From the IMG/VR virus record IMGVR_UViG_3300036780_000012, positions 9,589 to 73,588 of that record: a stretch of 64,000 nt of DNA; one strand, 5' to 3'. Position numbers and translations under genes: made by a program. Source of the stretch: a virus. This document shows, piece after piece, positions 19,803 to 36,714 of this stretch (position 1 is the first letter of the stretch; every line of letters begins with the position of its first letter). Under the pieces are notes generated by a model. The model was not told the DNA's origin and searched no databases. It saw only the letters and a list, made by a program, of their open reading frames with translations.

Positions 19803-21346
19803 TGCATCAACTCCTGCAGTGCATCCTTAGAACTAGCAGCACTTTTCTTAGCTTTTGCTTTCCCGTTCGGCTTGCCACCTTCTGGCTCAGGAGGATTCTC
19901 GGCTAACTCCATGCTCTGCTCGCCCTGTTCCAGCATCTGCCCATGCTGCTCCTCGGCCATACTTGCACCCGTAGTTTGGGAGGCAGACTTAATATCGTCG
20001 TCGGTTATGTTCGTCCAGCGCCCGCTGATCTTCGATAATTGCCGGAGTTCCTTTAATGCAGTCTGCGGCGAACATATACCGGCATTAAATACACCAGTTA
20101 CATTCGCAGCGTCTTGGCTGCCAATCTGCGCCTTATCATTGTCGCTCAGCACCCAAAGACTGCGAAAATCAAGAGTAAAGCCTTCAGGCAACTTAACCCC
20201 TTCGCTCTGCGCAATCGCTCGATAAATACGAGTCAGCGGAACAAGCAGCCACCTATTCTGCTGTTGTTTGATACCGTCGTAGTACGTTCGCAGATCGGAC
20301 TCACCAGTAGCATTCATACCGATAGGGGATTGACCGAAGAGGCGCGTGAGGGGAATCTGAAGCGCACCGCCTAATTGCTGTCCAAACTGAATCAGAGCAT
20401 CACTAAGGCCAGAGAATGATGGCTGAGCCATAGCCGCAAGCTCGTCCTTGCCGTCGATGAGCGTAATACCCTCAATCGACTGCAACCGCCGCATGAACTC
20501 GGTATAGCGTAATAGGTTCTGCTCGCCTGGTCCACCGTTAGCTATAATCTCTCGCATACCGTCGATCTTGTAGCAACGCAGATAAGCCTTGTAGACAAGC
20601 TGTGCCGCTCCGGTAGTGGCTGAGTCGAAAGCAACCATGCGATCATACAGGCGCTCTAGTACCGATATGCCCCAGAGGTTCTCCATTACGCGCTGCCAGT
20701 AACTTAACCGAATGCCTTCCAGTCGGAGACACCGCGAGTAATGGATTTTCTGCTTGATAACTGCGGGTGCTGTAGCGAGCACGGTGTAGAACTTAGGCAA
20801 GCCGAGATCGGGACCAAGGTCAGTTACCAAATCGTTCAGTGATGGATCAATCATCCACCGATCCAAGACTAGTAAACCCTTGAACTGATCCTTCCCGATA
20901 GTCTCCAAGCGTAGCGGCGTCTCCATCCGCTGCCCGTCAACTAGCATGACTGCAATAGCGCCACCATACAGCCTCGACCATTTCACCGTGTCCGAGATTG
21001 CCGGCCAAATCTGAAATGTATTGACCGCCCGATCCATATGCTCGATATCGTCAGGCTTAACGTCACCCCTGATATCGGCCCCAGCGCGCGTCATGTCATC
21101 AGCTACAACATCGACTGCTACGCCACCAAGCCATGAGCCGCGATGAATCCATTCGAGCAGGGTACGGATTCGGGTTATTGGATTAAACCCGTAACTCGAT
21201 GAACTTAAAAGATTGTCGGTTCCTATTCCTAAATTCGCTGCAAAATTTTGGAGAGAGTCTGCGGTCTTGTTCAAGCGCAAGTCGCGGGCTTTTTTGTCAG
21301 CAGCTAGTGCCTGTTTGACGACGCGCTTGATACTGGCTTTCGCCAT
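19799..21346 (-). CDS. portal protein (DUF1073-like)
   Basis: DSL.NF...LG, W.....VD.VADDMTR.G, RLYGG, IH.SR, WG.S.L, IP.TRLFGQSP.G.NATGESD...YYD motifs. Confidence 0.93.
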   Translation of the reverse strand: MAKASIKRVVKQALAADKKARDLRLNKTADSLQNFAANLGIGTDNLLSSSSYGFNPITRIRTLLEWIHRGSWLGGVAVDVVADDMTRAGADIRGDVKPDDIEHMDRAVNTFQIWPAISDTVKWSRLYGGAIAVMLVDGQRMETPLRLETIGKDQFKGLLVLDRWMIDPSLNDLVTDLGPDLGLPKFYTVLATAPAVIKQKIHYSRCLRLEGIRLSYWQRVMENLWGISVLERLYDRMVAFDSATTGAAQLVYKAYLRCYKIDGMREIIANGGPGEQNLLRYTEFMRRLQSIEGITLIDGKDELAAMAQPSFSGLSDALIQFGQQLGGALQIPLTRLFGQSPIGMNATGESDLRTYYDGIKQQQNRWLLVPLTRIYRAIAQSEGVKLPEGFTLDFRSLWVLSDNDKAQIGSQDAANVTGVFNAGICSPQTALKELRQLSKISGRWTNITDDDIKSASQTTGASMAEEQHGQMLEQGEQSMELAENPPEPEGGKPNGKAKAKKSAASSKDALQELMQ

Positions 21347-21924
21347 TATGCCGCCACCTTGCGGATCATTTGCCACTCTTCCATGGTTCTAGCGCCCTTA
21401 CTTTGATTACAGGGGGGACAGAGTAACTGTAGATTGCTAGGCCAGTTCGAACCGCCTCTCGCTATAGCAAGAATGTGATCAACATGATACTTAGGACTTA
21501 GGTTGGATGGACAAGCCGCACAGATCCCTTTCTGTTTCTGGAATAAAGCGATAATATCTTGTGGGCTGTGCCGACCTCCTACTAACCGTTTTCTTGCTCG
21601 ACGATTGCGAACGAGAACTGCTGCCTTAAGACGTTTCCCTACGATATCACGCTCCCTAGACCTAACTTCCTGTTGTCGAACTTTATCGCGATTAGCTCGT
21701 TTCCATTCACGATTAGCAGCAATGCGTTTTGCTTTGTCTTTTCTGTAGTGCAGTTTAAGATATTCTCGACAATCGCGAACTCTCCCCTTTTCGCGTTCAT
21801 GTTTGCAGCTTACACATGTCTTTGTAGAGATGATACGTTCGCATACATGGCCGCGCTTGCATGGTATACCAGTGAAATAGCGAGTCGGAGAAATGAATGC
21901 AGAAGCAGGAGTCTTGGCACTCAT
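21346..21924 (-). CDS. HNH homing endonuclease
   Basis: N-terminal YFTG.PC.RGH...R....C..C; C-terminal C..C...HVDH....RGGSN...NLQLLC..CN.SKG. Confidence 0.88.
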   Translation of the reverse strand: MSAKTPASAFISPTRYFTGIPCKRGHVCERIISTKTCVSCKHEREKGRVRDCREYLKLHYRKDKAKRIAANREWKRANRDKVRQQEVRSRERDIVGKRLKAAVLVRNRRARKRLVGGRHSPQDIIALFQKQKGICAACPSNLSPKYHVDHILAIARGGSNWPSNLQLLCPPCNQSKGARTMEEWQMIRKVAA

Positions 21925-22139
21925 GAGAAGTTCCTTCCTCGCCACCGTCTCGATGCTCTACGCGGCAAATGAATCGCCTTGTCTCCTACTTCAACTGCAG
22001 GCTGCTTCATCTTAAACGTCACGCTTTTAGCTCCAACATGTACGCTATCTGCATTCTCTGCCGCTACTGGCTTCCATTGCGCATCATTGTCCTTCTGCAT
22101 CTCGCCAACCGTGCGACCCACTGGCTTAAAGTTACTCAT
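21921..22139 (-). CDS. small hypothetical protein
   Basis: ORF coupled to terminase; xxD motifs. Confidence 0.45.
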   Translation of the reverse strand: MSNFKPVGRTVGEMQKDNDAQWKPVAAENADSVHVGAKSVTFKMKQPAVEVGDKAIHLPRRASRRWRGRNFS

Positions 22140-23716
22140 AAGCGCGCCCAGACATCTAATGCCTTACCTTCACCGCCGAGCCAGATGGCCGCTTGGGTCA
22201 TCATGTCCACCTGATCGTCATGCGCTGCCGTGGGAAACATAGTAACTTCATCGACAAACGATGGGCACCAGGCTGCATTACGTTCAATGTACCAATCTCC
22301 GGCTTGCCATTCAGGAGCTGCTGCGAACATGCGAGCTACCTTGCCGCCCTCCGGCTCAATTTCGATTACTCCTGTAGTGTCCTTCTTGAGTGCTTGGATT
22401 ACAGCGGGTCCATTGGCTTTGTCTTCCACGATTACCGCTGTCGCTTGAGGAAAGCGTAAACGCTGATTCTTGATCTCTAGAACCGTACCCTGCATATCGA
22501 GATGTTCTCTTACGACATTCAGGATGTAGCGCTTACGCCCTCGCACCCCTATTACGCCAATACAAACGTAATCCGAAGTCTTCAGGTCTTTGAATGAGCA
22601 ATCAACAGAAAGAAATACACGACTGAATGCTGGGCTGGGAACGTCACCGGGACGCGGCAGTTTTTCATCTGGGAGGCCAGTTAGCGGATCGATGCCACCA
22701 TAGTATCTCACCTCCGCCCGCTTAATCATATTCCCTTCAAGCGGTGCAGGGCGTTGCTGATACTGCCCAGCATAGACCAGTCGATTACGTTTCTTTTCCT
22801 CAACAATGGCCGGAGGGAACCTATCAGGCTGGAGAACGTCTCCCTTTAATCTCAAGTGAACTTTTCCGCTAATCGGGTAGATATATTCTTTATCTTCCTC
22901 AGCCACTAGCGGAATCACAATCTCCGTCCAAGCGCCAGGATCTTCTACTGAGACAAATCCGGCAGTATCCATCTCGTGAAGCCGCTGCATAATCAAGATG
23001 ATTGAAGCTGTAGCCGGATCATTTAGACGTTGCTTAAGCGTATTCGTAATCCAGCGATTCGCTGCTGTTCGTTCCGTGTCCGACAACGACTGCTCAGACG
23101 ACATAGGATCATCGAGAATTGCAATATCGCCCCCACGTCCTTCAGCGCCACTCCCGGTAGAGGTAGCAATCATTTGCCCCATTTTGCTGTTCGAGAACTG
23201 CGTCGTGAGATTACGGTCGGGAGCGAGTTGAAACTTGTCTGCCCATAAGCCTTGAAAGAAATTGCTACTAATCAGGTTCCTGCGCCCTACCGAGTGGTCG
23301 GTGGATAGCGAGTTTGAATATGAGGCACAGAGAAATGAAAGCGATGGATTCTGAAGCCACGCCCAACAAGGGAATGAAATTGTAGCGAGGCTGGACTTAG
23401 CGGTACGAGGCGGAACATTGATCTTCAGTCGTCGCAGTTTCTTCTGAATCACTAATTGCAGATGCTCGCAGATGTAATCGTAATGCCATGACCAACGCAA
23501 TTCACGACCAGGCTCGATCACCTTCCATGCCGCTTTAAAGAAGGCCGAAAGGTTAGTCTCCATTACGATCTTGTCGATATCCGAGATAGGCGAGGCCGCT
23601 GGTGTTTCTGCTTTAATCTCAGACACTAACTGCAATACAAGCGAAAGCTCATGCTCAGTCATAACTGGCATAAGCCGTTTTATCTTATCGACCGGAATTG
23701 CGTACGCGGCACTCAA
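22136..23716 (-). CDS. terL: terminase large subunit
   Basis: INVPPRTAKS (Walker A variant), ILDDP (Walker B), YQQRP, SVDCSFK, IVEDKANG, HDDQVD nuclease motifs. Confidence 0.95.
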   Translation of the reverse strand: MSAAYAIPVDKIKRLMPVMTEHELSLVLQLVSEIKAETPAASPISDIDKIVMETNLSAFFKAAWKVIEPGRELRWSWHYDYICEHLQLVIQKKLRRLKINVPPRTAKSSLATISFPCWAWLQNPSLSFLCASYSNSLSTDHSVGRRNLISSNFFQGLWADKFQLAPDRNLTTQFSNSKMGQMIATSTGSGAEGRGGDIAILDDPMSSEQSLSDTERTAANRWITNTLKQRLNDPATASIILIMQRLHEMDTAGFVSVEDPGAWTEIVIPLVAEEDKEYIYPISGKVHLRLKGDVLQPDRFPPAIVEEKKRNRLVYAGQYQQRPAPLEGNMIKRAEVRYYGGIDPLTGLPDEKLPRPGDVPSPAFSRVFLSVDCSFKDLKTSDYVCIGVIGVRGRKRYILNVVREHLDMQGTVLEIKNQRLRFPQATAVIVEDKANGPAVIQALKKDTTGVIEIEPEGGKVARMFAAAPEWQAGDWYIERNAAWCPSFVDEVTMFPTAAHDDQVDMMTQAAIWLGGEGKALDVWARL

Positions 23717-26628: not shown

Positions 26629-27045
26629 TTAGTGAAGTACCGGAGCGTCTACGGTAACCTCTGCTGAGGTTCCATTCTCGCCAACGCTTGTCGTAGTAAT
26701 TTCCGGCTCTGGCGGTGGGAAGTCCGTTGCCTTCTGCGTTGTTTTCTTCTTTGCTGGCAGTTCGCCAATCTTGACTTTCACCTTCTCATCTACGGCCTGT
26801 ACCCAGCAATGAACGTCTGCATGATGGTATTCGGTTTTCTTGTGCTTCTTCATCAACAGTAGAAGATCGTCATTCAATTCGCCTTCTTGTTTCGTCAGGT
26901 CCATGCGCTGATCGCGGATATCGGCATACTCTTCCGCTTTCTCTTCAAGTTCGGCTAGCGCACGATCTTCCATTCCGGACAGCGTTCCCTGTTTCGGACC
27001 TTTCTTCGCTTTCTTCTCAGTCGTTTTCTTTGCTTTTGGTGGCAT
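26629..27045 (-). CDS. basic coiled-coil protein, putative DNA-binding
   Basis: MPPKAKKTTEKKAKK start; coiled coil. Confidence 0.55.
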   Translation of the reverse strand: MPPKAKKTTEKKAKKGPKQGTLSGMEDRALAELEEKAEEYADIRDQRMDLTKQEGELNDDLLLLMKKHKKTEYHHADVHCWVQAVDEKVKVKIGELPAKKKTTQKATDFPPPEPEITTTSVGENGTSAEVTVDAPVLH

Positions 27046-27205
27046 AGTTTTCCTCGCTTGAAATATCTCCCGTATGCAGAACCTCTCAGCTTTGCTAATG
27101 GGGCTACGGGGGACCCGGAGGTAGGCTGTTTTGGCACCCGCAACTTCCTACCCGCCACTCTTTACTACGATTCCTCCGCTTGTTAGGCAGAGTGTGCCAA
27201 CGCTT

Positions 27206-27739
27206 TTACGCCGCGCTCTCGCTGATCGTGAAACCAGCCGGACTGCTGTCCGAGGTCACATCAATTGCATTGGCTGCGGTACTGATTGTCGCTCCGTTGG
27301 TCAAAGTATCCGAGAACGTTACCACGATTCCCGTAGCATCGACGGGAGGCTGTGGAACGGTACTCAGGAATACGAGGCCGGTTGTATCAGGCAGACGCGG
27401 AGGATTCGCTGTCGGATCGCCAGGGTCTTGTACTGGATTGGTCAACGAAGCAGGCGCACTGCTTGTTCCGGTAATTGGCCCACTACCGCTCGGCAGCGCA
27501 ACCGGATTGCCTGCCGCATTGACTGGCTGGAGCGTAAACAGAACACCTTTGCCATCGTCAAGAATATCGAAGTCAACTGTTGCTTTTGCTTTTGCCATTT
27601 TCTTTTCTCCTGTGCTGATTGATACTACATTTTCGGTTATGTTGAATTTAACTGGATCGAGGAAGAACTCGCGGATTAACCGGAGATCGTGCCCTATCTT
27701 CTCCAGCGCTTCCGCGATGCGCCATAGTTGTTCTGGCAC
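27206..27739 (-). CDS. Ig-like beta-rich hypothetical protein
   Basis: L.PV.A.GNPV motif; Pro/Thr/Ser-rich; internal start MAKAKA possible. Confidence 0.5.
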   Translation of the reverse strand: MPEQLWRIAEALEKIGHDLRLIREFFLDPVKFNITENVVSISTGEKKMAKAKATVDFDILDDGKGVLFTLQPVNAAGNPVALPSGSGPITGTSSAPASLTNPVQDPGDPTANPPRLPDTTGLVFLSTVPQPPVDATGIVVTFSDTLTNGATISTAANAIDVTSDSSPAGFTISESAA

Positions 27740-27747
27740 CTTACCTC

Positions 27748-28479
27748 CTAGGCCGCTTTCTCGCTAGCCTTTGCTTCGGAAAACTTCACGCCGTCCCAGC
27801 CATCCTCGCTGTACGCCTTACGAGCCGCACCGTTCATAACCATGCCGTTGTGCTTCTTCATCTTAAACTTATCGAAGGTTGCAAGCGGCACGGCATAGCC
27901 CTGATCGAGTTTCCCTTTGATGCGAATCGTCGCACAAATGGCTACAGGCAAATCGTTTGCCTTAGCGAATTCTTGCGCAGCATCAAGTCGCTTCTGGGAA
28001 AGTTGCAACCATTGGCCCCGAGCCTCAACGCCGCGCTCATAGTTTACCTGGTGCCAGATGACAGCCGCTTTCCTGCCAAACAGGAGAGCAGTGTAGACGT
28101 TAGGAGTCTCTGTCGGAGTCAGTTCGACTTCCCGCTCAGGCTTCGCAAAGGGGTGATCAACGCGAGGATTCGCAGACTTGCTCGGCTTTTTCTCTTTGGA
28201 TTTCTTCGCAGCCTTGGGCGCTTTCTCTTTCTTAGCCTTCGGCTCTTTCTTGGCTTTAACTTTCTTCGCCTTCGTCACAGTTTCCTCCACTTCCTCGTCG
28301 CTGGCGACTTCTACGCCGCGTTCAATTGATTCAAGCACCAGTTCTGCCCGATTCTCAATGTCCGGGTTGGCTAGAGCCTGCACATGTTTCTTGTAAATCT
28401 CTTTGGCTTTTGCGATTGTGCAACCACGCCGTTCTTGAATCTTTCCAGCGGCTTCTAAATCAAAATAATTGAACTCCAA
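27748..28479 (-). CDS. protein with histone H1-like Lys/Ala-rich linker
   Basis: KAKKVKAKKEPKAKKEKAPKAAKKSKEKK; TTG start after GGAGG; own promoter. Confidence 0.6.
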   Translation of the reverse strand: MEFNYFDLEAAGKIQERRGCTIAKAKEIYKKHVQALANPDIENRAELVLESIERGVEVASDEEVEETVTKAKKVKAKKEPKAKKEKAPKAAKKSKEKKPSKSANPRVDHPFAKPEREVELTPTETPNVYTALLFGRKAAVIWHQVNYERGVEARGQWLQLSQKRLDAAQEFAKANDLPVAICATIRIKGKLDQGYAVPLATFDKFKMKKHNGMVMNGAARKAYSEDGWDGVKFSEAKASEKAA

Positions 28480-28514
28480 GACTTCCTCCGTGATGGCTAA
28501 CCCATCTGGTGAAC

Positions 28515-28542
28515 ACCGTAGCATAATGCATCACGATGTCAA
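28515..28542 (-). promoter_or_regulatory. sigma70-type promoter
   Basis: TTGACA-N16-TACGGT with extended -10 TG. Confidence 0.5.
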
Positions 28543-28580
28543 TAACTTTTATCTTTGTGGAGTGAATGACTTGCAGAGTG

Positions 28581-29324
28581 TCATGCTCCTACATTCCAAA
28601 ATAACGCTCCATCCGATCCATGCTCTTGGATAAAACTCCAAACCTTAGCATCGTAATTACTGCAACTCGGAAAAGGAGGAATGATCTTCGATGGTTGCTC
28701 GAACTTTTCCAATGCCTTCCATAGTTTTGCTCGATCCACATTACATTTGGCACCGACTTGGACAGCATTAAACTCCGATTCAGGCCATGCAGATTGCAGC
28801 GCTCGCGATAGAGTTCCACTACCGGCGCAAGCCCATACTTCTCTGGGCTTAATCGGCATCGCAACGGCAACCTTAGAGAACTCAGCAATGGCTTGCGGAT
28901 GATCTACTCCGAAGGGTACTAACGACGCCCCAACCTCTTTCGCATAGGTCCGCGCCCGAAACTGGACGACAGAGAGATAACCATTTGGGATCATAACGAT
29001 CTTTGCGCCTGCTTCTTCAGCGCGGAGCGTTCGAGCGTGGAGTTCTTTGCGCTGGGCCGTAAAGATAGTAGCTTTGACGCCAATCATGGCACAGCAATGA
29101 GCTAATGCAATCTGAGCATATCCGAAGGCAGGAGATGCGTAAACCCATTCCGAGTTTGGGTTAGATTGTATGAGCGGCAGAATATATCGCATCTTCGAGC
29201 CACCAGCGAGTAAATCATCACGCACAACATAAAATCGCCCAACCTTTTCAATTACTGGCGCTGGCAGCGAGATGGACGATTCGAGATCCAGTGAAGGCCA
29301 GTGCATGTTTAATAGTTGGCTCAT
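28581..29324 (-). CDS. fold-type II PLP-dependent enzyme (D-cysteine desulfhydrase/ACC deaminase/TrpB-like)
   Basis: VVRDDL..GGSK.R (PLP lysine), GYAQIALA, VW.CAGSGTL (phosphate loop), NYDAK.W, LFWNVG. Confidence 0.85.
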   Translation of the reverse strand: MSQLLNMHWPSLDLESSISLPAPVIEKVGRFYVVRDDLLAGGSKMRYILPLIQSNPNSEWVYASPAFGYAQIALAHCCAMIGVKATIFTAQRKELHARTLRAEEAGAKIVMIPNGYLSVVQFRARTYAKEVGASLVPFGVDHPQAIAEFSKVAVAMPIKPREVWACAGSGTLSRALQSAWPESEFNAVQVGAKCNVDRAKLWKALEKFEQPSKIIPPFPSCSNYDAKVWSFIQEHGSDGALFWNVGA

Positions 29325-29350
29325 AGTTCATCTGTCCACCTTTCGCGGAA

Positions 29351-29704
29351 TTACAACGACAATGGCTGAGTTAGCGAGAATGGCCGACTGCCAGCGTTAC
29401 CATTGCATAAACAACAGGAAACTCCATTCATCAACTCGCCCGTCTCCTCGTTAACAACCCGGTCGTCTCGAAAGCCACCATGCCCTCCCCTACTTCGCTG
29501 GTGATCGAACGTAGGGTCAACGATTAAATGATTGCCGCGAACGCAGATATTATGCTGACGTAAGCGCATTTCTTCAGTACGTCGCATGTACTCTGCTCTA
29601 CCTTTCGCTGTATCGCAGCACACCTCGCGCCCATTCGGGTATCGACGCACGGCACCGTCACAAACTAATTCATACCGTAACGATGGTTTCGCTGAAACTG
29701 TCAT
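29351..29704 (-). CDS. HNH-like nuclease
   Basis: C...H...TFDH...RG.GG..RDD...N...C..CN..GS. Confidence 0.6.
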   Translation of the reverse strand: MTVSAKPSLRYELVCDGAVRRYPNGREVCCDTAKGRAEYMRRTEEMRLRQHNICVRGNHLIVDPTFDHQRSRGGHGGFRDDRVVNEETGELMNGVSCCLCNGNAGSRPFSLTQPLSL

Positions 29705-30267
29705 GCCTGTTCACTTACTAGCCACTCGATAAAGTCCTCTAGCGTAGCGGACTCATCGGTTAATTTGTAAGCTTCGTAACAGCCTTCAATCTTCGACCAT
29801 TGACTTGCTGTGAATCGCAAGCGGTGCTCTACTACGCTTTCAATATGTTGCTGAGGAAATTCCTGCTCAAGTACCTGGCGCAGTTCGGCAGGCTTCATCT
29901 TGGCAGCTTGTCTAATTTTGGACTGGCGTCGAACTCCTGAAGAGAGTTGCTTCAGGATGCCAGCCGAACCAAGAGGAATCTGCTCTAGTTCTTTGTCGGG
30001 AATATCAGGAGCAAGTTCCTTGTAACGATTTATCACTAGGTAAAGATAACTCCGCGATCTGGGAGCGGCATCGACAATCCATTTGGTGAAAGATTCAAAC
30101 CCAAGCAGTTCCCAATCCTTATCACGCTCAACATCTACACAGCACTTCGCAATCGAGACCCAATTCGAGAATTGCTCATCAAAGGCACGGACAAAACTGT
30201 CTCGTGCTATGGCTCGCTGCTTTGGAGTTAGAGCCTCACTTGAATTTTTATTTATTTTATTAATCAT
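29701..30267 (-). CDS. HTH DNA-binding protein (DUF3102/ParB-HTH-like)
   Basis: W..LGFESF..W......SRS..Y..I...EL pattern; contains a palindrome variant at 29909. Confidence 0.55.
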   Translation of the reverse strand: MINKINKNSSEALTPKQRAIARDSFVRAFDEQFSNWVSIAKCCVDVERDKDWELLGFESFTKWIVDAAPRSRSYLYLVINRYKELAPDIPDKELEQIPLGSAGILKQLSSGVRRQSKIRQAAKMKPAELRQVLEQEFPQQHIESVVEHRLRFTASQWSKIEGCYEAYKLTDESATLEDFIEWLVSEQA

Positions 30268-31007
30268 TCATTGCCGCCGTCATAGCACGTACATGGCAAG
30301 TGATTTACTCTGGGTGGCATCAGCATCGTTTCTTGATCCCGATGGAACTCTATGATCTGCCGCCACGAATGAGTTCTCGCAAGGCCTTTGATCTGGTAAA
30401 GTTTCGTTGCATTGTTCTCCATGCCTAGCGCCCGAAGTAATAACTCAGGGTGCGCTTTTCCAAGGTCTATAATCTCCTGCTCCTCCATTTCTGGACAGAA
30501 GAAGCATGATGATTTTGGCGGCACGTCGAAGCCGTTGCGTTCAATCGCCTGTACACACTCTTCCCTGTACCAACCCCATTCAATCAAAGGATATTGATTC
30601 CATGGCCGATCAACTGCCATACGATGTGGCTCGCCAGCATCGAATCCGATCAATTTAACATGCTCACTAATGCCAAGGGATTTTAGGTAACGCTCTTGCG
30701 GTCGAATCTTGAACTTGTCGGAGCAGGATCGCCTACCCATTACAATAGAAGGTAATGTATTTGCGGCAAGGCATTCTTCCTCTAGTGTAAATCTTTCCTC
30801 GCGCACCGTGACGATTGCGGGAAATCCATGTCGCTCGCACCAGCAAGAAAATGCTTCCAAGTGCTGATACGTCTCAGGCTTTTCGCCACCCGTATCCGCG
30901 AATAGAATTATGTCTGGCCGCATGCCGCGCTCCCACATTCCAATTAACATTGCCGTCGAGTTGACGCCACCTCCGAAGCTAGCTACAGTTAGCATTTCTT
31001 CTCCCAT
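30264..31007 (-). CDS. PAPS reductase-family (PP-loop, DndC/CysH-like) protein
   Basis: VASFGGGVNSTA PP-loop, FADTG.E...TY, RSCS..FKI.P, GFDA.E..R, YPL, KSSC.FCP. Confidence 0.88.
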   Translation of the reverse strand: MGEEMLTVASFGGGVNSTAMLIGMWERGMRPDIILFADTGGEKPETYQHLEAFSCWCERHGFPAIVTVREERFTLEEECLAANTLPSIVMGRRSCSDKFKIRPQERYLKSLGISEHVKLIGFDAGEPHRMAVDRPWNQYPLIEWGWYREECVQAIERNGFDVPPKSSCFFCPEMEEQEIIDLGKAHPELLLRALGMENNATKLYQIKGLARTHSWRQIIEFHRDQETMLMPPRVNHLPCTCYDGGNE

Positions 31008-31029
31008 TCACAGAATATATCGACCATCT

Positions 31030-31983
31030 TCATTGCTCAAACTCCGTAAAATCTTTCCGAATCGACTCAGGATTCCCGCGAAAGAAACACATCACGTACT
31101 GATGCGCACTACCAGCCTTACGCCCCTTGGCAAATTGACCATTCACTCGTAATGGCAATGAACCAATGGGCGTCAGCAAAACGAATTCATTGTAGAGTTT
31201 GAATCCTGCACCAAGTAGAGCCGAAGCTGTAGGTTGACGCATGTCACGGATAAAACCTTCATCGTCGCGGATATTTCCTACCACCACAATCGCGAAGCGT
31301 TGCGACTTCAATCTGCGAGCAGCGAGCAGCATAATGCGCTGATACTTGATTACAAAGTCTTGCCAGTTATCCAGTGTACTTAGGTCGCGGCGGTCGTTTG
31401 AATAACGTTCAAGATTCCAATACGGGGGACAAGTGAATAGCAGATCGTACTCATCTCCCACCATGTTTTCCAGATTCACGCTATCGCCGCATATCCAGTG
31501 CGGGTTAGGCTGACAAGGAATTTCAATTGCCTGTTTCACGTTCGCATCAATTTGCTCTTGACGAAGATCAATGCCGACGTACTGATAGCCAAGACGACCA
31601 GCTACAATGCCGCGCACGCTGCCACCAGCGAATGGGTCGAAGATACCGAGCGTCGATTTCTCGGGCATATACCATGAGTAAAACAGTTCGCAGAGAACGG
31701 GATCGAAGATGCTACTGGCGTTGCCATCCTCTCCTAAAGCATCACCACGGCCATCACCGCGCCCACGTGCAGCATAATTAGCCGCAGGCATGGCTGAACC
31801 GCCCGGAGCCGCCCAACGCCCCCCCTCGCCTTCCAGTCCTAAAGACAGCCAGTCCCGTTTCCGATCCTGCCACCTGCCCGTTCTCTGGTCGAGCGTCGTA
31901 AATGGCGGCTCTATGAACCTTTGACACATCGCTCCACCGGGAAGTTTATCTACGGTCGTATTCCCGAACAAATCAGTTTCCAA
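31030..31983 (-). CDS. amino-DNA methyltransferase
   Basis: S.FDPVL.E, FDPFAGGSVRG (motif I), FTCPPY (motif IV); TTG start after GGAGG. Confidence 0.85.
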   Translation of the reverse strand: METDLFGNTTVDKLPGGAMCQRFIEPPFTTLDQRTGRWQDRKRDWLSLGLEGEGGRWAAPGGSAMPAANYAARGRGDGRGDALGEDGNASSIFDPVLCELFYSWYMPEKSTLGIFDPFAGGSVRGIVAGRLGYQYVGIDLRQEQIDANVKQAIEIPCQPNPHWICGDSVNLENMVGDEYDLLFTCPPYWNLERYSNDRRDLSTLDNWQDFVIKYQRIMLLAARRLKSQRFAIVVVGNIRDDEGFIRDMRQPTASALLGAGFKLYNEFVLLTPIGSLPLRVNGQFAKGRKAGSAHQYVMCFFRGNPESIRKDFTEFEQ

Positions 31984-34210
31984 TGACTTCCTCCTCGTCC
32001 AAAATTGGACTGTCGATAGCACTCTCTGAGAACAAACCTTTATTCATCGTTGCGGCTGCCGCAAGATTTGCGCACGCCTGCTTCCAGTAAGACTCTTTTA
32101 ATTCGATCCCGATAAACTTTCTTTGCACCTTGACTGCCTCATACCCCTCACTACCGATCCCCGCGAAAGGTGAAAGTACGGTATCAAATGGGTTCGTCCA
32201 CAACTTCAAAGCACGAGCAATTACTTCCAACTGCAAAGGACATATATGCCGCTCGTCGCGTTCTTCGCGTGCCGATTCACGTTGCAAAGTATCGCTCGGA
32301 TTGATATCCATCCAGACAGGAGAGGCATAGCGCTGCCAGACTTGTACCGGTAAATCCTCTGCCGTATGAGTTACACGTTGGGGATTGTCTCCATGCTTTC
32401 GCATTGTTACCAGATAATCCGGAATGCCTTGACGGCTCATGCACGAATCTTTCTTGAGTTGTTTATGAAGTAATCCGAGAGCTTTGGTTCGCTGCATCGC
32501 AGTCACAGGATCTTTCCAGATAGTTACCTGCGAATGCAGAATGAATCCAGCCTGCTCGAATAGAGCAATGAGCTTGCCGCGAAAATCCGTGATACCAATT
32601 ACACCGTCTCGTTCTTTCGATGTAGGGAGGTCCATGCAGTGAAAACTCATCAGTCGCCCAGGCAGCAGAACTCGTAGCAATTCGGGAGCGAGAAAGCGAA
32701 GATGCTCAAAGAACTCCTCATGCGTCCGGGAATTCCCCATATCACGTTCTGAAGCTGAATACGTGTAGAGCGATGCGAACGGAGGGGAAAAAATACTGTA
32801 GTGAATTGAGTTGGCGGGGAACTTGGATAGAACCTCCACGCAATCACCTAGATGCATCGTCCAGACTTCGCCAGCATCAATCTTGTGCTCGTAATTGACT
32901 TTCTGGCGAACATTGCCCTTGATCTCTGCTTGATTTAATTCGTGCATGTTGTTCACCATCTCTTCTGCCATCCTCTGAGCATCGGCCTCTTTGCGTTTGA
33001 TATTCTTCACTACTTCTCCCTCGGCTGTACTGGTAACTATGTAACAATCAACTTCTTGCTTTTGTCCGAACCTCCAACACCTTCTCACCGCTTGGTAAAA
33101 TTGTTCGTATGAATCAGACAACCCGAGAAATACAACGTTATGGCAGTTTTGCCAGTTGAGCCCGAATCCTGCGATGCTAGGTTTCGTGACCAGTATCCGA
33201 ATCTTGCCCGTAGCAAAGTCAATCATGCTGCGTTCTTTGAATTCAATCGAATCAGAGCCGCATACCTCAACTGCTCCGTCAATTCGCTCGACCGCAGCCC
33301 GACTTTCACTGTTAAGATTGCACCATATTAACCATTGCTCTTTTCGCTTTGCAGAAACAATTGCCGCTACCTCGTCGGCCCGTTCCTCGACACTCTTAGA
33401 TCGGGCTTGTTGGCGCTCTTGTAGTGTAACGGCTGGCATCTGAAAGAGCATTCCTTCCGTGCATGTTTCGGCATCGACCTGACGCTCGTGAATTCTTAAG
33501 GCAGGCAGTTGAAACAGATCATCGTTATATCCGAGGTCTGACGGTTTGCGTAGCATTACTGCCCAAGAACATACCCACTTCCAGAACTTCGTCTCAGCAT
33601 GACCCTTGAGCCGCCATTTCGATGTATCCCCACCATCATGCACAAAGAATGTTGAAAGCATTTCTGTGCGCGTCAGGTTGCCTAAAAATTCTGAATGGTT
33701 ACCGAGTTCCATGAAGTCATTCGGGGCTGGGGTTGCCGTACATGCAAGTTTGTACGGGGTATCACGAAATCTCTCGATAATTAGATTGCGGAACTTCCCT
33801 TCAAAATGCTTGACAATGCTCGATTCATCTAGGATGATTGCTTCGTATTTATTCGCATTGAAGTGCTCTAACATTTCATAATTGGTGATTGTAATAGCAG
33901 CATCGCGTTCAGGCTTGCGCTGATAACAGACTTCAACATCGAATTTCCCGCCTTCGCGCACCGTTTGAGGAGCTACGGCAAGAGGGGCGAGAATCAGCGT
34001 CTTAACTTTCAATGCATCGGCCCATTGCAACTGCATTGGTGTCTTACCTAATCCACAATCTGCAAAAATAGCAGAGCGCCCTTTGCGAGCGGACCATCGC
34101 GTAATATCTATCTGAAAATCAAACAACTGCTTATTTAGGCCGACAATATCTTTTCCAGATGCGACATGCGTCACTACTTTTGACGCTAAGAATTGTTTAT
34201 AGTTCTTCAC
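31973..34210 (-). CDS. SNF2-like helicase fused to N4/N6 DNA methyltransferase
   Basis: DCGLGKT, LDESS, TATPAPND, GLNWQ, QAVRRCWRFGQ helicase motifs, then GDC, FSPPF, HICPLQL, SPFAGIGSEG MTase motifs. Confidence 0.92.
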   Translation of the reverse strand: MKNYKQFLASKVVTHVASGKDIVGLNKQLFDFQIDITRWSARKGRSAIFADCGLGKTPMQLQWADALKVKTLILAPLAVAPQTVREGGKFDVEVCYQRKPERDAAITITNYEMLEHFNANKYEAIILDESSIVKHFEGKFRNLIIERFRDTPYKLACTATPAPNDFMELGNHSEFLGNLTRTEMLSTFFVHDGGDTSKWRLKGHAETKFWKWVCSWAVMLRKPSDLGYNDDLFQLPALRIHERQVDAETCTEGMLFQMPAVTLQERQQARSKSVEERADEVAAIVSAKRKEQWLIWCNLNSESRAAVERIDGAVEVCGSDSIEFKERSMIDFATGKIRILVTKPSIAGFGLNWQNCHNVVFLGLSDSYEQFYQAVRRCWRFGQKQEVDCYIVTSTAEGEVVKNIKRKEADAQRMAEEMVNNMHELNQAEIKGNVRQKVNYEHKIDAGEVWTMHLGDCVEVLSKFPANSIHYSIFSPPFASLYTYSASERDMGNSRTHEEFFEHLRFLAPELLRVLLPGRLMSFHCMDLPTSKERDGVIGITDFRGKLIALFEQAGFILHSQVTIWKDPVTAMQRTKALGLLHKQLKKDSCMSRQGIPDYLVTMRKHGDNPQRVTHTAEDLPVQVWQRYASPVWMDINPSDTLQRESAREERDERHICPLQLEVIARALKLWTNPFDTVLSPFAGIGSEGYEAVKVQRKFIGIELKESYWKQACANLAAAATMNKGLFSESAIDSPILDEEEVIGN

Positions 34211-34236
34211 TTGCTTCCTTTCACAATCCTCGCTGA

Positions 34237-34464
34237 CTACTTAACCCAATTCCCCGCCAGTCGCCAATTGCGCCGCATCTGCGCGATGTTAATCTCACTT
34301 ACTCTGATGATTCTCACTAACGTATTTCTATGGACATTCAAACTCCGAGCGCACTCGCTGATATTGAGACCGCATTCGTTTAGCCTGAGAATTACGAACT
34401 CTCGCCGATACTCCCACATCGCCTGATGCAGACTGGCGCGATTCGTAACTCTAGGTAATTCCAT
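34237..34464 (-). CDS. Fis-family HTH protein
   Basis: L....GLN.SECARSLNVHRNTL. Confidence 0.7.
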   Translation of the reverse strand: MELPRVTNRASLHQAMWEYRREFVILRLNECGLNISECARSLNVHRNTLVRIIRVSEINIAQMRRNWRLAGNWVK

Positions 34465-34672
34465 ATTTGTCCATCCACCGCTTCAGTTCCATCGTATCTA
34501 TTCCCAAAACGTTTGAGGTATGTACGATATTCCCGCGATTGAGTTCGAGCGCTCGTACGATAACTGTATTGCGGAAACGGTCCACGATCTCATCCAGTCT
34601 GCGACGGTAGAGCTGGATACTACGGTCGATTAACTCTACGACGCTTCGTTGTTGAACTAGCGGAGTATTCAC
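34451..34672 (-). CDS. Fis-family HTH protein
   Basis: I.RAL....GN...T...LGI....L...M.KYG. Confidence 0.65.
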   Translation of the reverse strand: MNTPLVQQRSVVELIDRSIQLYRRRLDEIVDRFRNTVIVRALELNRGNIVHTSNVLGIDTMELKRWMDKYGIT

Positions 34673-34681
34673 ATGTTTCTC

Positions 34682-36343
34682 CTAAAACGGCGCATCGCTT
34701 TTCGCATCTTCATGTCTACGCCATCCATTCTTTGGCGGTTCCCACGATACTCTTGCTAACTCCGTTGAATCATCTGCTCCGCGAATGATGCGCCAGTAAA
34801 ACGGGTCTACTGGCTCCGCAATCTTCAACTCGCATTCAAACTTTCGTGTCCAAGGCATCTGATCTTCCATCTGCGTAATGCCTACTACCCACTCTAGCCA
34901 TCCGGCAATTGCCGACCCGCCGCGTACTCGCTCCGTCAATCGCGTTCCCGGTAGATTGTTCTTGCTTTCATGGTGGATAAGGCAGATAGAAACTCCCGTA
35001 TCACCCTGAATCCGATTCATCGTATTGACAACCTTTTGCATATCATTGTTGTCATTCTCGTCTCCCGCATGAAGAACACGCATTACATCAAGAATCAGGA
35101 ATTCGCTTTGATACCGTTTTAGGTCTGCAATGAGTGCAGTTACGTCGTCGGGATAGTCCAGCATGATCTTCGGCTTGAGTCCCTTCGCGTTGATATACAA
35201 CCAGCCTTCTAAGTCGATATTTGTAAGATTACGAAACTGCATAATCTTCGTCTTGCGCACTTGGGTTAAGCCTGAAGAATCTTCTCGGCTAACTAATGCG
35301 ACTCGAATACGGCGCGGAATGTAGAAGTCCATCCACTTCTGCCCGGAAGCGAGAGCGAGAGCGAGGTCGAGGACCATATAGCTTTTCCCACTCTTAGGAT
35401 GCGAGATGAAAGAACCGTTTGCTCCAGCTTGAACTAAACCTTCCACAAACCAGTTCACCGTTTCTTGCCGCGTAGCATCGAACTCGGCAGGAGTCATAAA
35501 CAGCGTAGTTGCTGCACTACTCTCTTCCGGCTTCCACCATTTCGTTTTCTTCGCCAGGTCCAAGAGGTCCGCTACTGAATGAGTTTTCAGGAAGTCGCTA
35601 ACATCTCCATGCTCGGGTAACTCTGGGAGTTCTACGATCTTCACACCTTGAGCGTAGCGTAAACAGGAAAGCGCGATGCGAGCCGCATGATCTCTTCCCG
35701 GCTTATCGTTGTCGGGGATAACAAGCACCTGCTTACCAGCCGTATAGAGCGCGAAATCATCTAGCCATTTACCAGCTCCGCGCGGGGAAGTAGTCACCGC
35801 CAGGTGTGGAAACTTCCCCGCTAGAGCCGTCGTCAAGTTATCGGCATCGCGTTCGCCCTCTACGACAATCAAATTCTTCGCGGTTATTACTTCAGGTAAT
35901 TTGTAGAGAACCATTTTCAGATTCTCGGTTTTCCAAATCCAACCGCCCTTTGCGTCAGGCTGACGCTGGGCGAAACGTTTACCGGGATAACGAACTACTT
36001 GAAACAGGAGTTTCCCAAAAGCATCGGTGTAAGGATAAATCGCTTCCGGCTGCTGCCCGAAGTTTAGATGCTGCTCACCTACAATCTCCGCGATCCGAGA
36101 TAGGGCGGCGTCCTTATCACAGCTAGAAAACAGCATCTCGAATTCTAGGACGCCACCTTGTCCGCATCCCGCGTGACATTTCCATGCACCTTTTTCGGTA
36201 CTGATTGAAAGCGATGGAGCCTTGTCATCATGGAAACAGCATTTTGCCATATAACCGGAACCGGATCGGCGCATTCGGTTATCGGCTAGACGAGTTTCGA
36301 AGTAACGGCGAAATTGAGATTCTGTTAGGTCGGAGAGTTTCAC
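34682..36343 (-). CDS. primase-helicase (CHC2 Zn finger + TOPRIM + RepA/AAA_25 helicase)
   Basis: CCFHDD..PS...WKCHAGC, VVEGE.D, PDND..G, PKSGKS, ILD, IHH, RGGSAI. Confidence 0.92.
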   Translation of the reverse strand: MKLSDLTESQFRRYFETRLADNRMRRSGSGYMAKCCFHDDKAPSLSISTEKGAWKCHAGCGQGGVLEFEMLFSSCDKDAALSRIAEIVGEQHLNFGQQPEAIYPYTDAFGKLLFQVVRYPGKRFAQRQPDAKGGWIWKTENLKMVLYKLPEVITAKNLIVVEGERDADNLTTALAGKFPHLAVTTSPRGAGKWLDDFALYTAGKQVLVIPDNDKPGRDHAARIALSCLRYAQGVKIVELPELPEHGDVSDFLKTHSVADLLDLAKKTKWWKPEESSAATTLFMTPAEFDATRQETVNWFVEGLVQAGANGSFISHPKSGKSYMVLDLALALASGQKWMDFYIPRRIRVALVSREDSSGLTQVRKTKIMQFRNLTNIDLEGWLYINAKGLKPKIMLDYPDDVTALIADLKRYQSEFLILDVMRVLHAGDENDNNDMQKVVNTMNRIQGDTGVSICLIHHESKNNLPGTRLTERVRGGSAIAGWLEWVVGITQMEDQMPWTRKFECELKIAEPVDPFYWRIIRGADDSTELARVSWEPPKNGWRRHEDAKSDAPF

Positions 36344-36714
36344 GCAAACACTCCCGCCAACCCATCTTCCGTCATCCAGGTTTGAGGAATCTCAGGTCCG
36401 ATTAAACCACGCAGCGTTGCGAGCTCCTGCCAGTCCAAATACATCGGCGGTAAATCCGTTCTTTCAAACGTTTCTATTTCATGGCAGCGGCGACAGAGAA
36501 CTTCGAGGTCGCTATCCAGTTCACGTCCTATACGCTGATAGTTCTTATGGTGAACATGAAGGCGCTGATCGTAGAACAGAAGTGCGGCGACATTTAGGAT
36601 CCCGCACCGATTGCAAGTCGGATGATCGAACAGGAATATCTTTCGGCGTTGGAGCCATTGCTCGGAAGAAAGATAATCACAGTATTCGCTTCGAGTTCTA
36701 ATTTGCGATTTCAA
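36340..36714 (-). CDS. HNH endonuclease
   Basis: YL.S..W...R, CNRC, LHVHH..Y...G.E...DL..LC..CH. Confidence 0.8.
   Translation of the reverse strand: MKSQIRTRSEYCDYLSSEQWLQRRKIFLFDHPTCNRCGILNVAALLFYDQRLHVHHKNYQRIGRELDSDLEVLCRRCHEIETFERTDLPPMYLDWQELATLRGLIGPEIPQTWMTEDGLAGVFA

Follow-up and report, generated by a model that had tools for sequence, protein, structure and literature searches.

What a small pyridoxal 5'-phosphate (PLP) protein does among the DNA-modifying genes of a phage is the question raised by a six-gene block in a 64,000-nucleotide (nt) stretch of viral DNA. This stretch, hereafter the window, covers bases 9589–73588 of the 73,588-base virus record IMGVR_UViG_3300036780_000012, which is rated 100% complete, and the phage may originate from a soil metagenome represented by one DNA run. 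The block occupies positions 28581–34210 of the window, and its six open reading frames (ORFs) all lie on the minus strand, where neighbors overlap or stand apart by no more than 56 nt. Two of them are the main subject here. The PLP gene (28581–29324, minus strand) encodes a protein of 247 amino acids (aa), identified by PHROG profile, AlphaFold2 model and Foldseek search as a fold-type-II PLP protein of the Pseudomonas phage M6 gp52 family (phrog_7093). The methyltransferase (MTase) gene (31030–32022, minus strand) encodes an amino-MTase-like enzyme of 330 aa with a CPPY motif, identified by Pfam, PHROGs and motifs. An original prediction, made from the letters of this stretch alone, had listed an SPPF helicase-MTase, a CPPY MTase, a PP-loop protein with Cys clusters, two small ORFs and a PLP enzyme; all six ORFs exist and are co-directional, and the SPPF and CPPY motifs, the PP-loop and the Cys pairs are visible in the translations.

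To our knowledge, PLP-dependent tailoring of DNA bases has so far been known only downstream of 5-hydroxymethyluracil (hmU). The gp52-type family has a second and much larger context, in which it is locked to an amino-MTase dependent on S-adenosylmethionine (SAM). This association suggests a DNA modification that has not been described, and the idea of an uncharacterized DNA modification, already put forward for this block, is judged plausible. We consider that the meaningful unit is a two-enzyme DNA-hypermodification module, formed by a CPPY or SPPY MTase and a short PLP enzyme, and give this reading a probability of about 0.5.

The PLP Gene Is Tied to an Amino-Methyltransferase

The PLP family is large in viruses. 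At E ≤0.001, 2585 proteins were assigned to it among 3086 candidates of near length, and IMG/VR gave 437 matched stretches, of which 417 encode a relative. The best 80 of these 417 relative-bearing stretches, together with two cultured phages, gave the 82 PLP loci compared here. An MTase homologue stands beside the PLP gene in 81/82 loci and on the same strand in all 81, and the sole locus without one belongs to a contig that ends 63 nt past the PLP gene. The distance between the matched segments has a median of 47 nt and is below 1.1 kb in 80/81 loci. Two types of MTase are found in these positions: 44 are of the window type and 37 of a related SPPY type in a T4-like lineage, which was recognized by SbcCD, the gp45 clamp, the gp44 clamp loader and RNase H. 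The PLP family is rare in cellular genomes (13 loci among 185,579 species), and an MTase adjoins it in 11 of the 13. The PLP gene is thus near-universally located beside or inside an MTase of the CPPY/SPPY type. Chance adjacency of the two genes was considered and is ruled out by the 81/82 loci.

In some cases, the two enzymes are parts of one polypeptide. Among the 80 long PLP homologues (>433 aa), precomputed annotation places PF01555 in 67, and 2 more have a weak match. The fusions are laid out as a ParB domain, MTase residues ~31–172, a whole PLP domain and MTase residues ~173–328, and the insertion point lies past MTase motif II and ahead of motif III. Four cultured phages carry the pair, namely R6L, ZS04, Pam4 and Mae-JY30. 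The fused form is found in Erythrobacter phage R6L (gp1) and Pseudanabaena phage Pam4 (gp70), while in Microcystis phage Mae-JY30 the PLP and MTase genes are adjacent. An AlphaFold2 model of one fused protein (L021, 774 aa) has well-folded domains, with a predicted local distance difference test (pLDDT) value of 77.3 and a predicted template modeling (pTM) score of 0.55. On the tree of PLP domains, the fused forms require only three state changes.

For the window proteins, which are encoded separately, three runs of complex prediction for the PLP protein and the MTase scored 0.00, 0.70 and 0.74 (median 0.70), and the best of 3 controls scored 0.00. A score of 0.70 is reached by 58/80 solved complexes and by 2/110 mismatched pairs; the partner pLDDT was at least 79 and the run agreement at least 0%. 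The prediction supports binding between the two proteins, as far as a model can. The predicted interface on the MTase comprises residues 225–240, 263–275 and 316–317, and the motifs of the SAM pocket lie outside it. Two interface columns, 232 and 233, hold mainly Ala where the MTase has a PLP partner and mainly Lys where it has none; as support for binding this is weak, since relatedness confounds it.

Several long homologues have further domains. The MTase-PLP fusion P0132 (1129 aa) also has a LAGLIDADG_3 domain (PF14528, precomputed annotation), which suggests a putative intein or homing-endonuclease insertion in a modification gene. Distant long PLP homologues, 28–51% identical, are joined to other partners: P0199 has a protein-kinase/APH-like domain, and P0128, P0131 and P0200 have YunG-like domains (PF24585). 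With its kinase-like domain, P0199 resembles the kinase-PLP fusions reported for thymidine hypermodification.

Family, Fold, and Predicted Active Site of the PLP Protein

The PLP protein scores 32.9 bits (5.7e-8) against Pfam PALP, below the cut-off of 35, and matches phrog_7093 at 3.2e-38; M6 gp52, the founding member of this PHROG, matches it at 2.2e-159. The AlphaFold2 model (pLDDT 91.7) has as its best Foldseek match in the PDB the entry 1j0a (E 1.3e-10, TMq 0.78), and D-cysteine desulfhydrase, threonine deaminase and cysteine synthase come next, with identities of 13–18%. The fold-type-II assignment made earlier from the letters is thus borne out. The same entry, 1j0a, served as template for the published model of ViI gp226 (PMC8989533). 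A sequence search of the PDB with the PLP profile returned nothing at E ≤0.01, and marginal matches to cysteine synthase and TrpB appeared up to E 10. In the BFVD, a fold search found the R6L fusion (E 2.4e-29) and, weakly, a Serratia phage protein (1.4e-5); M6 gp52 was not among the matches.

Profile-profile alignment with hhalign joins the window protein to M6 gp52 end to end, with probability 96.5 and E 7.4e-10; over 212 columns, the identity is 28%. Both proteins have a C-terminal PFP..YD.K.W...FWN.G motif, and K44 of the window protein is aligned with K36 of gp52, which has been named the likely aldimine lysine (PMC8989533). This predicted Schiff-base lysine is kept in 200/200 homologues, as is K227, and the GSG phosphate loop is kept in 197–198/200 and S220 in 197/200. 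Purified gp52 and ViI gp226 are yellowish and absorb at 410–425 nm; gp52 converts C-alpha-glycinylthymidine in DNA to 5-aminoethyl-dU (5-NedU), and gp226 decarboxylates O-seryl-thymidine (PMC8989533). Judged from these alignments, the window PLP protein is a homologue of gp52, a proven decarboxylase of a base-attached amino acid in polymeric DNA. The original prediction had set the M6/ViI-type decarboxylases aside, and it is to that very family that the protein belongs.

The window protein agrees with M6 gp52 and ViI gp226 in its PHROG, in a full-length alignment that includes the aldimine lysine, in the short fold-type-II form and in 1j0a as the nearest structure, and its gene likewise adjoins that of an enzyme that would install the substrate group. 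It differs from them in sequence, as the identity value indicates, and in its partner, which is a SAM-dependent amino-MTase-like enzyme and not aGPT-Pplase2; furthermore, in one clade of its family, the PLP domain is inserted inside the partner.

Another feature of the active site sets the family apart from the enzymes of sulfur metabolism. The loop Asn of cysteine synthase, the usual contact to O3' of PLP, corresponds to residue 69 of the window protein, which is Tyr in 131/200 and Phe in 62/200 homologues; cysteine synthase or desulfhydrase chemistry is therefore not expected. When held against desulfhydrases and 1-aminocyclopropane-1-carboxylate (ACC) deaminases, the protein lacks the canonical Asn loop, is 247 aa long (relatives ~230) vs. 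~320–340 aa, and is 14–15% identical.

The CPPY Amino-Methyltransferase

The partner enzyme matches Pfam N6_N4_Mtase with 32.6 bits (cut-off 26.7) over residues 127–160 only, phrog_12517 at 9.4e-85 and phrog_498 at 1.1e-62. Its nearest solved relative is 2zie, the putative modification methylase TTHA0409 of Thermus thermophilus (4.8e-19), and further relatives include CcrM, an N4-cytosine MTase and M.PvuII. The SAM motif I and the (D/N/S)PP(Y/F) signature by which PF01555 amino-MTases are recognized were both found, the latter in a variant form, since Cys takes the first position of motif IV in the window MTase and in most aligned relatives. Motif I (DPFAGGS) precedes motif IV (TCPPY), and both are kept in 20 aligned relatives. 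The family is larger than that of the PLP protein, as at least 570 of 584 matched stretches encode a relative.

With the N6_N4_Mtase amino-MTases in general, the window type has in common motif I, the (S/C)PPY motif and the frequent fusion to ParB. It differs in the order of the motifs, with I before IV, which is permuted relative to the Pfam model, in the Cys that replaces Asp, Asn or Ser, and in that some members have a PLP domain as an obligate partner or as an interruption of their own sequence. Many MTase homologues have an N-terminal ParB domain, and none is recognizable in the window MTase.

The listed GTG start of the CPPY MTase gene produces a 50-nt overlap (31973–32022) with the end of the helicase-MTase gene. 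Because homologues align only from residue ~17–30 on, the true start is probably further downstream.

The Hydroxymethyluracil Pathway

The known PLP-dependent tailoring steps act on modified thymidines, and their upstream genes were searched for by profile in five genomes or records: the window phage genome, three near-complete relatives and R6L. A thymidylate-synthase-like gene (PF00303) was found in 0/5 and aGPT-Pplase2 (phrog_6364) in 0/5, a search that does find its target in M6. Tet/JBP (PF12851) was also found in 0/5, which says little, since the search matched in no control genome. A gene like 5-HMUDK (phrog_800) was found nowhere in the window phage genome, and weak matches occurred in 3/4 of the other records; a radical SAM gene was likewise not found in the window phage genome. 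The known upstream hmU pathway is thus absent from the window phage, which, unlike M6 and ViI, has no match to a source of 5-hydroxymethyldeoxyuridine (5-hmdU), to a 5-hmdU kinase or to a radical SAM isomerase. The earlier statement that no kinase, transferase or hmU partner is visible now extends to the whole 73.6-kb genome.

A Possible Route From SAM to an Aminopropyl Base

Among MTase-fold enzymes, Tyw2 moves the aminocarboxypropyl arm of SAM, and spermidine synthase moves the aminopropyl arm of decarboxylated SAM (dcSAM). Enzymes of the gp52 type need an alpha-amino acid that hangs on a base; in M6 the transferase that installs it adjoins, and here a SAM-binding MTase adjoins, which is why a transfer of the aminocarboxypropyl group is proposed. 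This arm was chosen because it is the only amino-acid moiety open to a SAM-binding enzyme in a two-gene module. In the proposed route, the PLP protein and the MTase would form a complex on DNA, and the MTase-fold enzyme would flip a base, either at cytosine N4 or at adenine N6, to judge from the (S/C)PPY motif. It would then install on the exocyclic amine the 3-amino-3-carboxypropyl moiety of SAM, which carries a free alpha-amino acid, and the PLP enzyme would decarboxylate this group to a cationic aminopropyl side chain. In an alternative order, the PLP enzyme may first make dcSAM, with the MTase fold acting as an aminopropyl transferase in the manner of spermidine synthase. Either route would lead to a charged and bulky base that blocks host nucleases, and both would be independent of hmU. 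As a specific chemistry, this proposal is tentative and we regard it as doubtful.

The same SAM-binding partner may be read differently. A possible though doubtful explanation is that SAM itself, whether free or bound to the MTase, is the substrate of the PLP enzyme. The enzyme would decarboxylate or cleave it, thereby feeding a changed cofactor to the MTase or starving SAM-dependent host defenses, in which case the phage MTase would be supplied directly. The fusion or adjacency of the two enzymes would suit such a role, and an MTase core that is the same with or without its partner is what would be expected if only the cofactor supply changes. A precedent is the CmoA/CmoX pair of Synechococcus phage S-B43, in which a phage enzyme makes a SAM analogue for an MTase homologue (PMC12783734), and dcSAM has been reported to inhibit methylation competitively (PMC2933235). 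However, the only characterized relatives of the PLP enzyme, M6 gp52 and ViI gp226, act on polymeric DNA according to the report on them (PMC8989533). The predicted interface on the MTase, moreover, excludes the SAM-pocket motifs. We also know of no PLP-dependent SAM decarboxylase of fold type II, which counts against a direct action on SAM.

The two-enzyme module proposed here resembles CmoA/CmoX in combining an MTase homologue with a second enzyme, in the non-methyl mark that would result and in the frequent ParB-domain neighbors; it differs in that CmoX is a C5-MTase homologue using carboxy-SAM from CmoA, in that the published description of the system includes no PLP enzyme, and in that the sequences are unrelated (PMC12783734). 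A targeted literature search, supplements (contig tables of PMC8989533 and PMC13229309) aside, found no description of a PLP-MTase pairing or of an aminocarboxypropyl or aminopropyl base in DNA.

Methyltransferases Without a PLP Partner

The dependence of the two genes on each other is one-sided. Among the at least 570 matched stretches that encode the MTase, 79 loci were newly fetched, of which 57 have at least 1.5 kb on both sides. A number of observations made on them and on the pair itself weigh against the module. First, a PLP gene lies within 6 kb in only 7/79 of these MTase loci, or in 6/57 of those with room on both sides. Neither is it located elsewhere: the PLP profile found it in 0/47 whole records without a nearby copy, 13 of which are at least 90% complete (one locus, L113, was left out), while in the control over whole records the gene was found in 5/5 known carriers. 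Second, on the MTase tree, near-identical MTases with and without a PLP partner are interleaved, and among the catalytic motifs no column separates partnered from unpartnered MTases, nor does any other column discriminate cleanly. Since near-identical MTases occur in both states and no catalytic column separates them, the MTase probably performs the same chemistry when alone. Should this be plain methylation, no amino-acid substrate on DNA would be left for the PLP enzyme. The CPPY MTase is also a clear relative of ordinary amino-MTases, as its match to 2zie indicates, and the paper on R6L gives gp1 as a single CcrM-like domain, with no DNA chemistry reported in the available part of its text.

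The pairing itself has weaker points. The fusions may stem from only one to three events, to judge from the tree, and one of the three complex runs scored 0.00. In the window, three genes and a distance of 1705 nt separate the PLP gene from the MTase gene, a gap exceeded in only 1/81 loci, where the match is partial and lies at a contig end. The closest relative of the region, a 5.7-kb IMG/VR contig (L085:181–5300) whose MTase is 77% identical, has neither a PLP gene nor a PP-loop gene, and the two genes for this reason look like separate insertions in the window phage. With regard to the PLP protein, Tyr or Phe stands in place of the usual PLP-contacting Asn and PLP binding is here a prediction, and an identity of only 28% to gp52 leaves room for a different type of reaction.

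On the other side, the partnered state is clustered on the MTase tree, which requires 14 changes vs. a shuffled mean of 29.2, with 0/500 shuffles as low. Amino acid:DNA transferases, too, occur both with and without a decarboxylase (PMC8989533), and in view of this likeness the one-way dependence is compatible with a tailoring enzyme. It is just as compatible with a plain methylase that has some other kind of accessory. As it fits both, the module is given no more than the probability stated at the outset, and the aminopropyl chemistry is kept as a far more tentative proposal.

The accessory could be non-catalytic. In that case, the enzyme would be an ordinary MTase forming N4-methylcytosine or N6-methyladenine, and the PLP-fold protein would serve in specificity or target recognition, or in regulation, from a position like that of the recognition domain of alpha-class MTases. 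The insertion, which separates the SAM-binding half of the MTase from the catalytic half, would agree with this, as would the replaced Asn and the fact that most members of the MTase family work without a PLP protein. We nevertheless hold it to be unlikely, because the invariance of K44 (200/200) and the near-invariance of the phosphate loop and Ser220 (at least 197/200) are hard to explain without catalysis, and gp52, a homologue, is yellow and active as a PLP enzyme (PMC8989533).

The PP-Loop Protein and the Sulfur Model

Between the MTase gene and the PLP gene lies a gene (30264–31007, minus strand) for a PP-loop protein of 247 aa that resembles PAPS reductase and SspD, as identified by PHROG, PADLOC and its PP-loop motif. 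It matches phrog_424 at 8.1e-35 and reaches 21.2 bits against Pfam PAPS_reduct, just below the cut-off of 22.5. In PADLOC, it matches SspD at 2e-14 over residues 8–202, and BrxP marginally (0.0079). Its PP-loop, SFGGGVNS, and its Cys pairs can be read in the translation, and it provides the DndC/SspD-like PP-loop enzyme that is a mark of Dnd and Ssp systems.

The original prediction had built its mechanism on this gene: the PP-loop protein and a PLP desulfhydrase would together introduce sulfur into DNA, in the form of a thio-base or a phosphorothioate. The similarity to SspD, the position of the gene between the MTase and PLP genes and the presence of D-cysteine desulfhydrase among the best structural neighbors of the PLP model speak for such a mechanism. 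However, the two genes do not travel together, nor is the PP-loop gene tied to the MTase gene in other phages. The phrog_424 family is present in 5/49 PLP-bearing records and in 0/3 of those at least 90% complete (profile search of whole records), and a PAPS-reductase homologue was found by tblastn in 1/82 PLP loci; the homologues of the phrog_424 type are scattered over 55 unrelated phage records. The earlier proposal had itself named the failure of the two genes to co-occur in other phages as evidence against it, and this is what was found.

Furthermore, the Dnd and Ssp systems use and need a fold-type-I cysteine desulfurase (PMC10853773). Such an enzyme (PF00266) was not found in the 73.6-kb phage genome, in a search whose control succeeded in 14/14 genomes; the IscS of the host may serve instead. 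The window protein is thus like SspD, DndC and BrxP in its match to the SspD model, and the phage differs from the Dnd and Ssp systems in having no SspA- or DndA-type desulfurase and in that its PP-loop gene belongs to a phage family. The PLP protein, for its part, tracks the MTase and does not keep the canonical substrate loop, its Asn being replaced. On these grounds, a sulfur mechanism is highly improbable, and the reading of the PLP gene as an auxiliary gene of sulfur metabolism was rejected. The PP-loop protein is probably an orphan of a widespread phage family, with SspD as its nearest relative.

Neighboring Genes

The gene at the upstream end of the block (31973–34210, minus strand) encodes a 745-aa protein in which an SNF2-type helicase is fused to a beta-class N6/N4 MTase with an SPPF motif (Pfam, PHROG and motif). 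It matches Helicase_C (3.2e-8) and N6_N4_Mtase (3.6e-15), SNF2-rel_dom below the cut-off (3.9e-4), and phrog_16 "DNA helicase" at 1.8e-72, and the SPPF motif is visible. Homologues were found in 0/82 PLP loci and 3/79 MTase loci; this helicase-MTase is an ordinary phage family without a link to the PLP gene elsewhere.

Two small ORFs complete the block. One (29701–30267, minus strand) encodes a 188-aa protein without a family match and shares its first 4 nt with the end of the PP-loop gene; the other (29351–29704, minus strand) encodes a 117-aa Cys/His-rich protein, also without a family match. They had been labeled as a helix-turn-helix (HTH) and an HNH protein, respectively, and neither label is matched in Pfam, PHROGs, NCBIfam or PADLOC. 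In the Atlas, the 188-aa protein falls to viral hypothetical clusters (0.96–0.97), with weak leads to ParB-HTH/DUF1016 and DUF3102 (0.88). It is conceivable that it is a separate DNA-binding partner for the window MTase, which has no ParB domain of its own. The contig L085 keeps homologues of the MTase, of the 188-aa and 117-aa proteins and of a 258-aa protein, together with an SNF2 helicase, in a different order. The 188-aa homologue is 62% identical and adjoins the MTase, and the 117-aa homologue is 60% identical.

Two HNH-type endonuclease genes do occur elsewhere on the minus strand of the window. The first (21346–21945; phrog_1035, 7.2e-20) lies directly downstream of the large terminase gene, and the second (36340–36714; phrog_144, 5.1e-9) immediately upstream of the primase-helicase gene, with a 4-nt overlap.

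The block is flanked on the minus strand by the primase-helicase gene (34682–36343) and the terminase gene (22136–23716). Promoter-like and terminator-like sites in 27000–35000 are not more frequent than in shuffled sequence, which fits a single transcription unit, though it is no proof of one, and a megablast search of 28000–35000 against phages gave no match. Taken together, the PP-loop protein, the helicase-MTase and the two small ORFs are best explained as independent neighbors in the replication module.

Other genes were noted near the PLP-MTase pair in contigs of the T4-like lineage. A SET-domain protein (L041:4980–5591; Pfam SET 4.6e-5) represents a cluster, c23, found in about a dozen loci, and in several marine T4-like contigs with the pair, its gene lies just upstream of an SbcC-like gene. 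In some T4-like contigs, the pair is followed, a few genes further downstream, by a gene for a 761-aa collagen-repeat protein (L036:14100–16385; Pfam Collagen 1e-54).

Implications

The PLP gene, which would mark such a pathway, occurs in no fewer than 417 viral contigs, a marine T4-like lineage among them, and in cultured phages of Erythrobacter, Pseudanabaena and Microcystis; the four cultured carriers make the question directly testable. Even if the MTase is a plain methylase, a PLP-fold domain would still have been recruited into an MTase, which is unusual. The finding could represent phage DNA hypermodification by a gp52-type PLP tailoring enzyme, and a new class of it if the predicted chemistry holds. 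In that event, the frequent annotation of phage genes as "threonine dehydratase" or "DNA modification methylase" would be explained, a compact two-gene tool for placing primary amines on DNA would be at hand, and phages would possess a new class of DNA modification with SAM as its only substrate.

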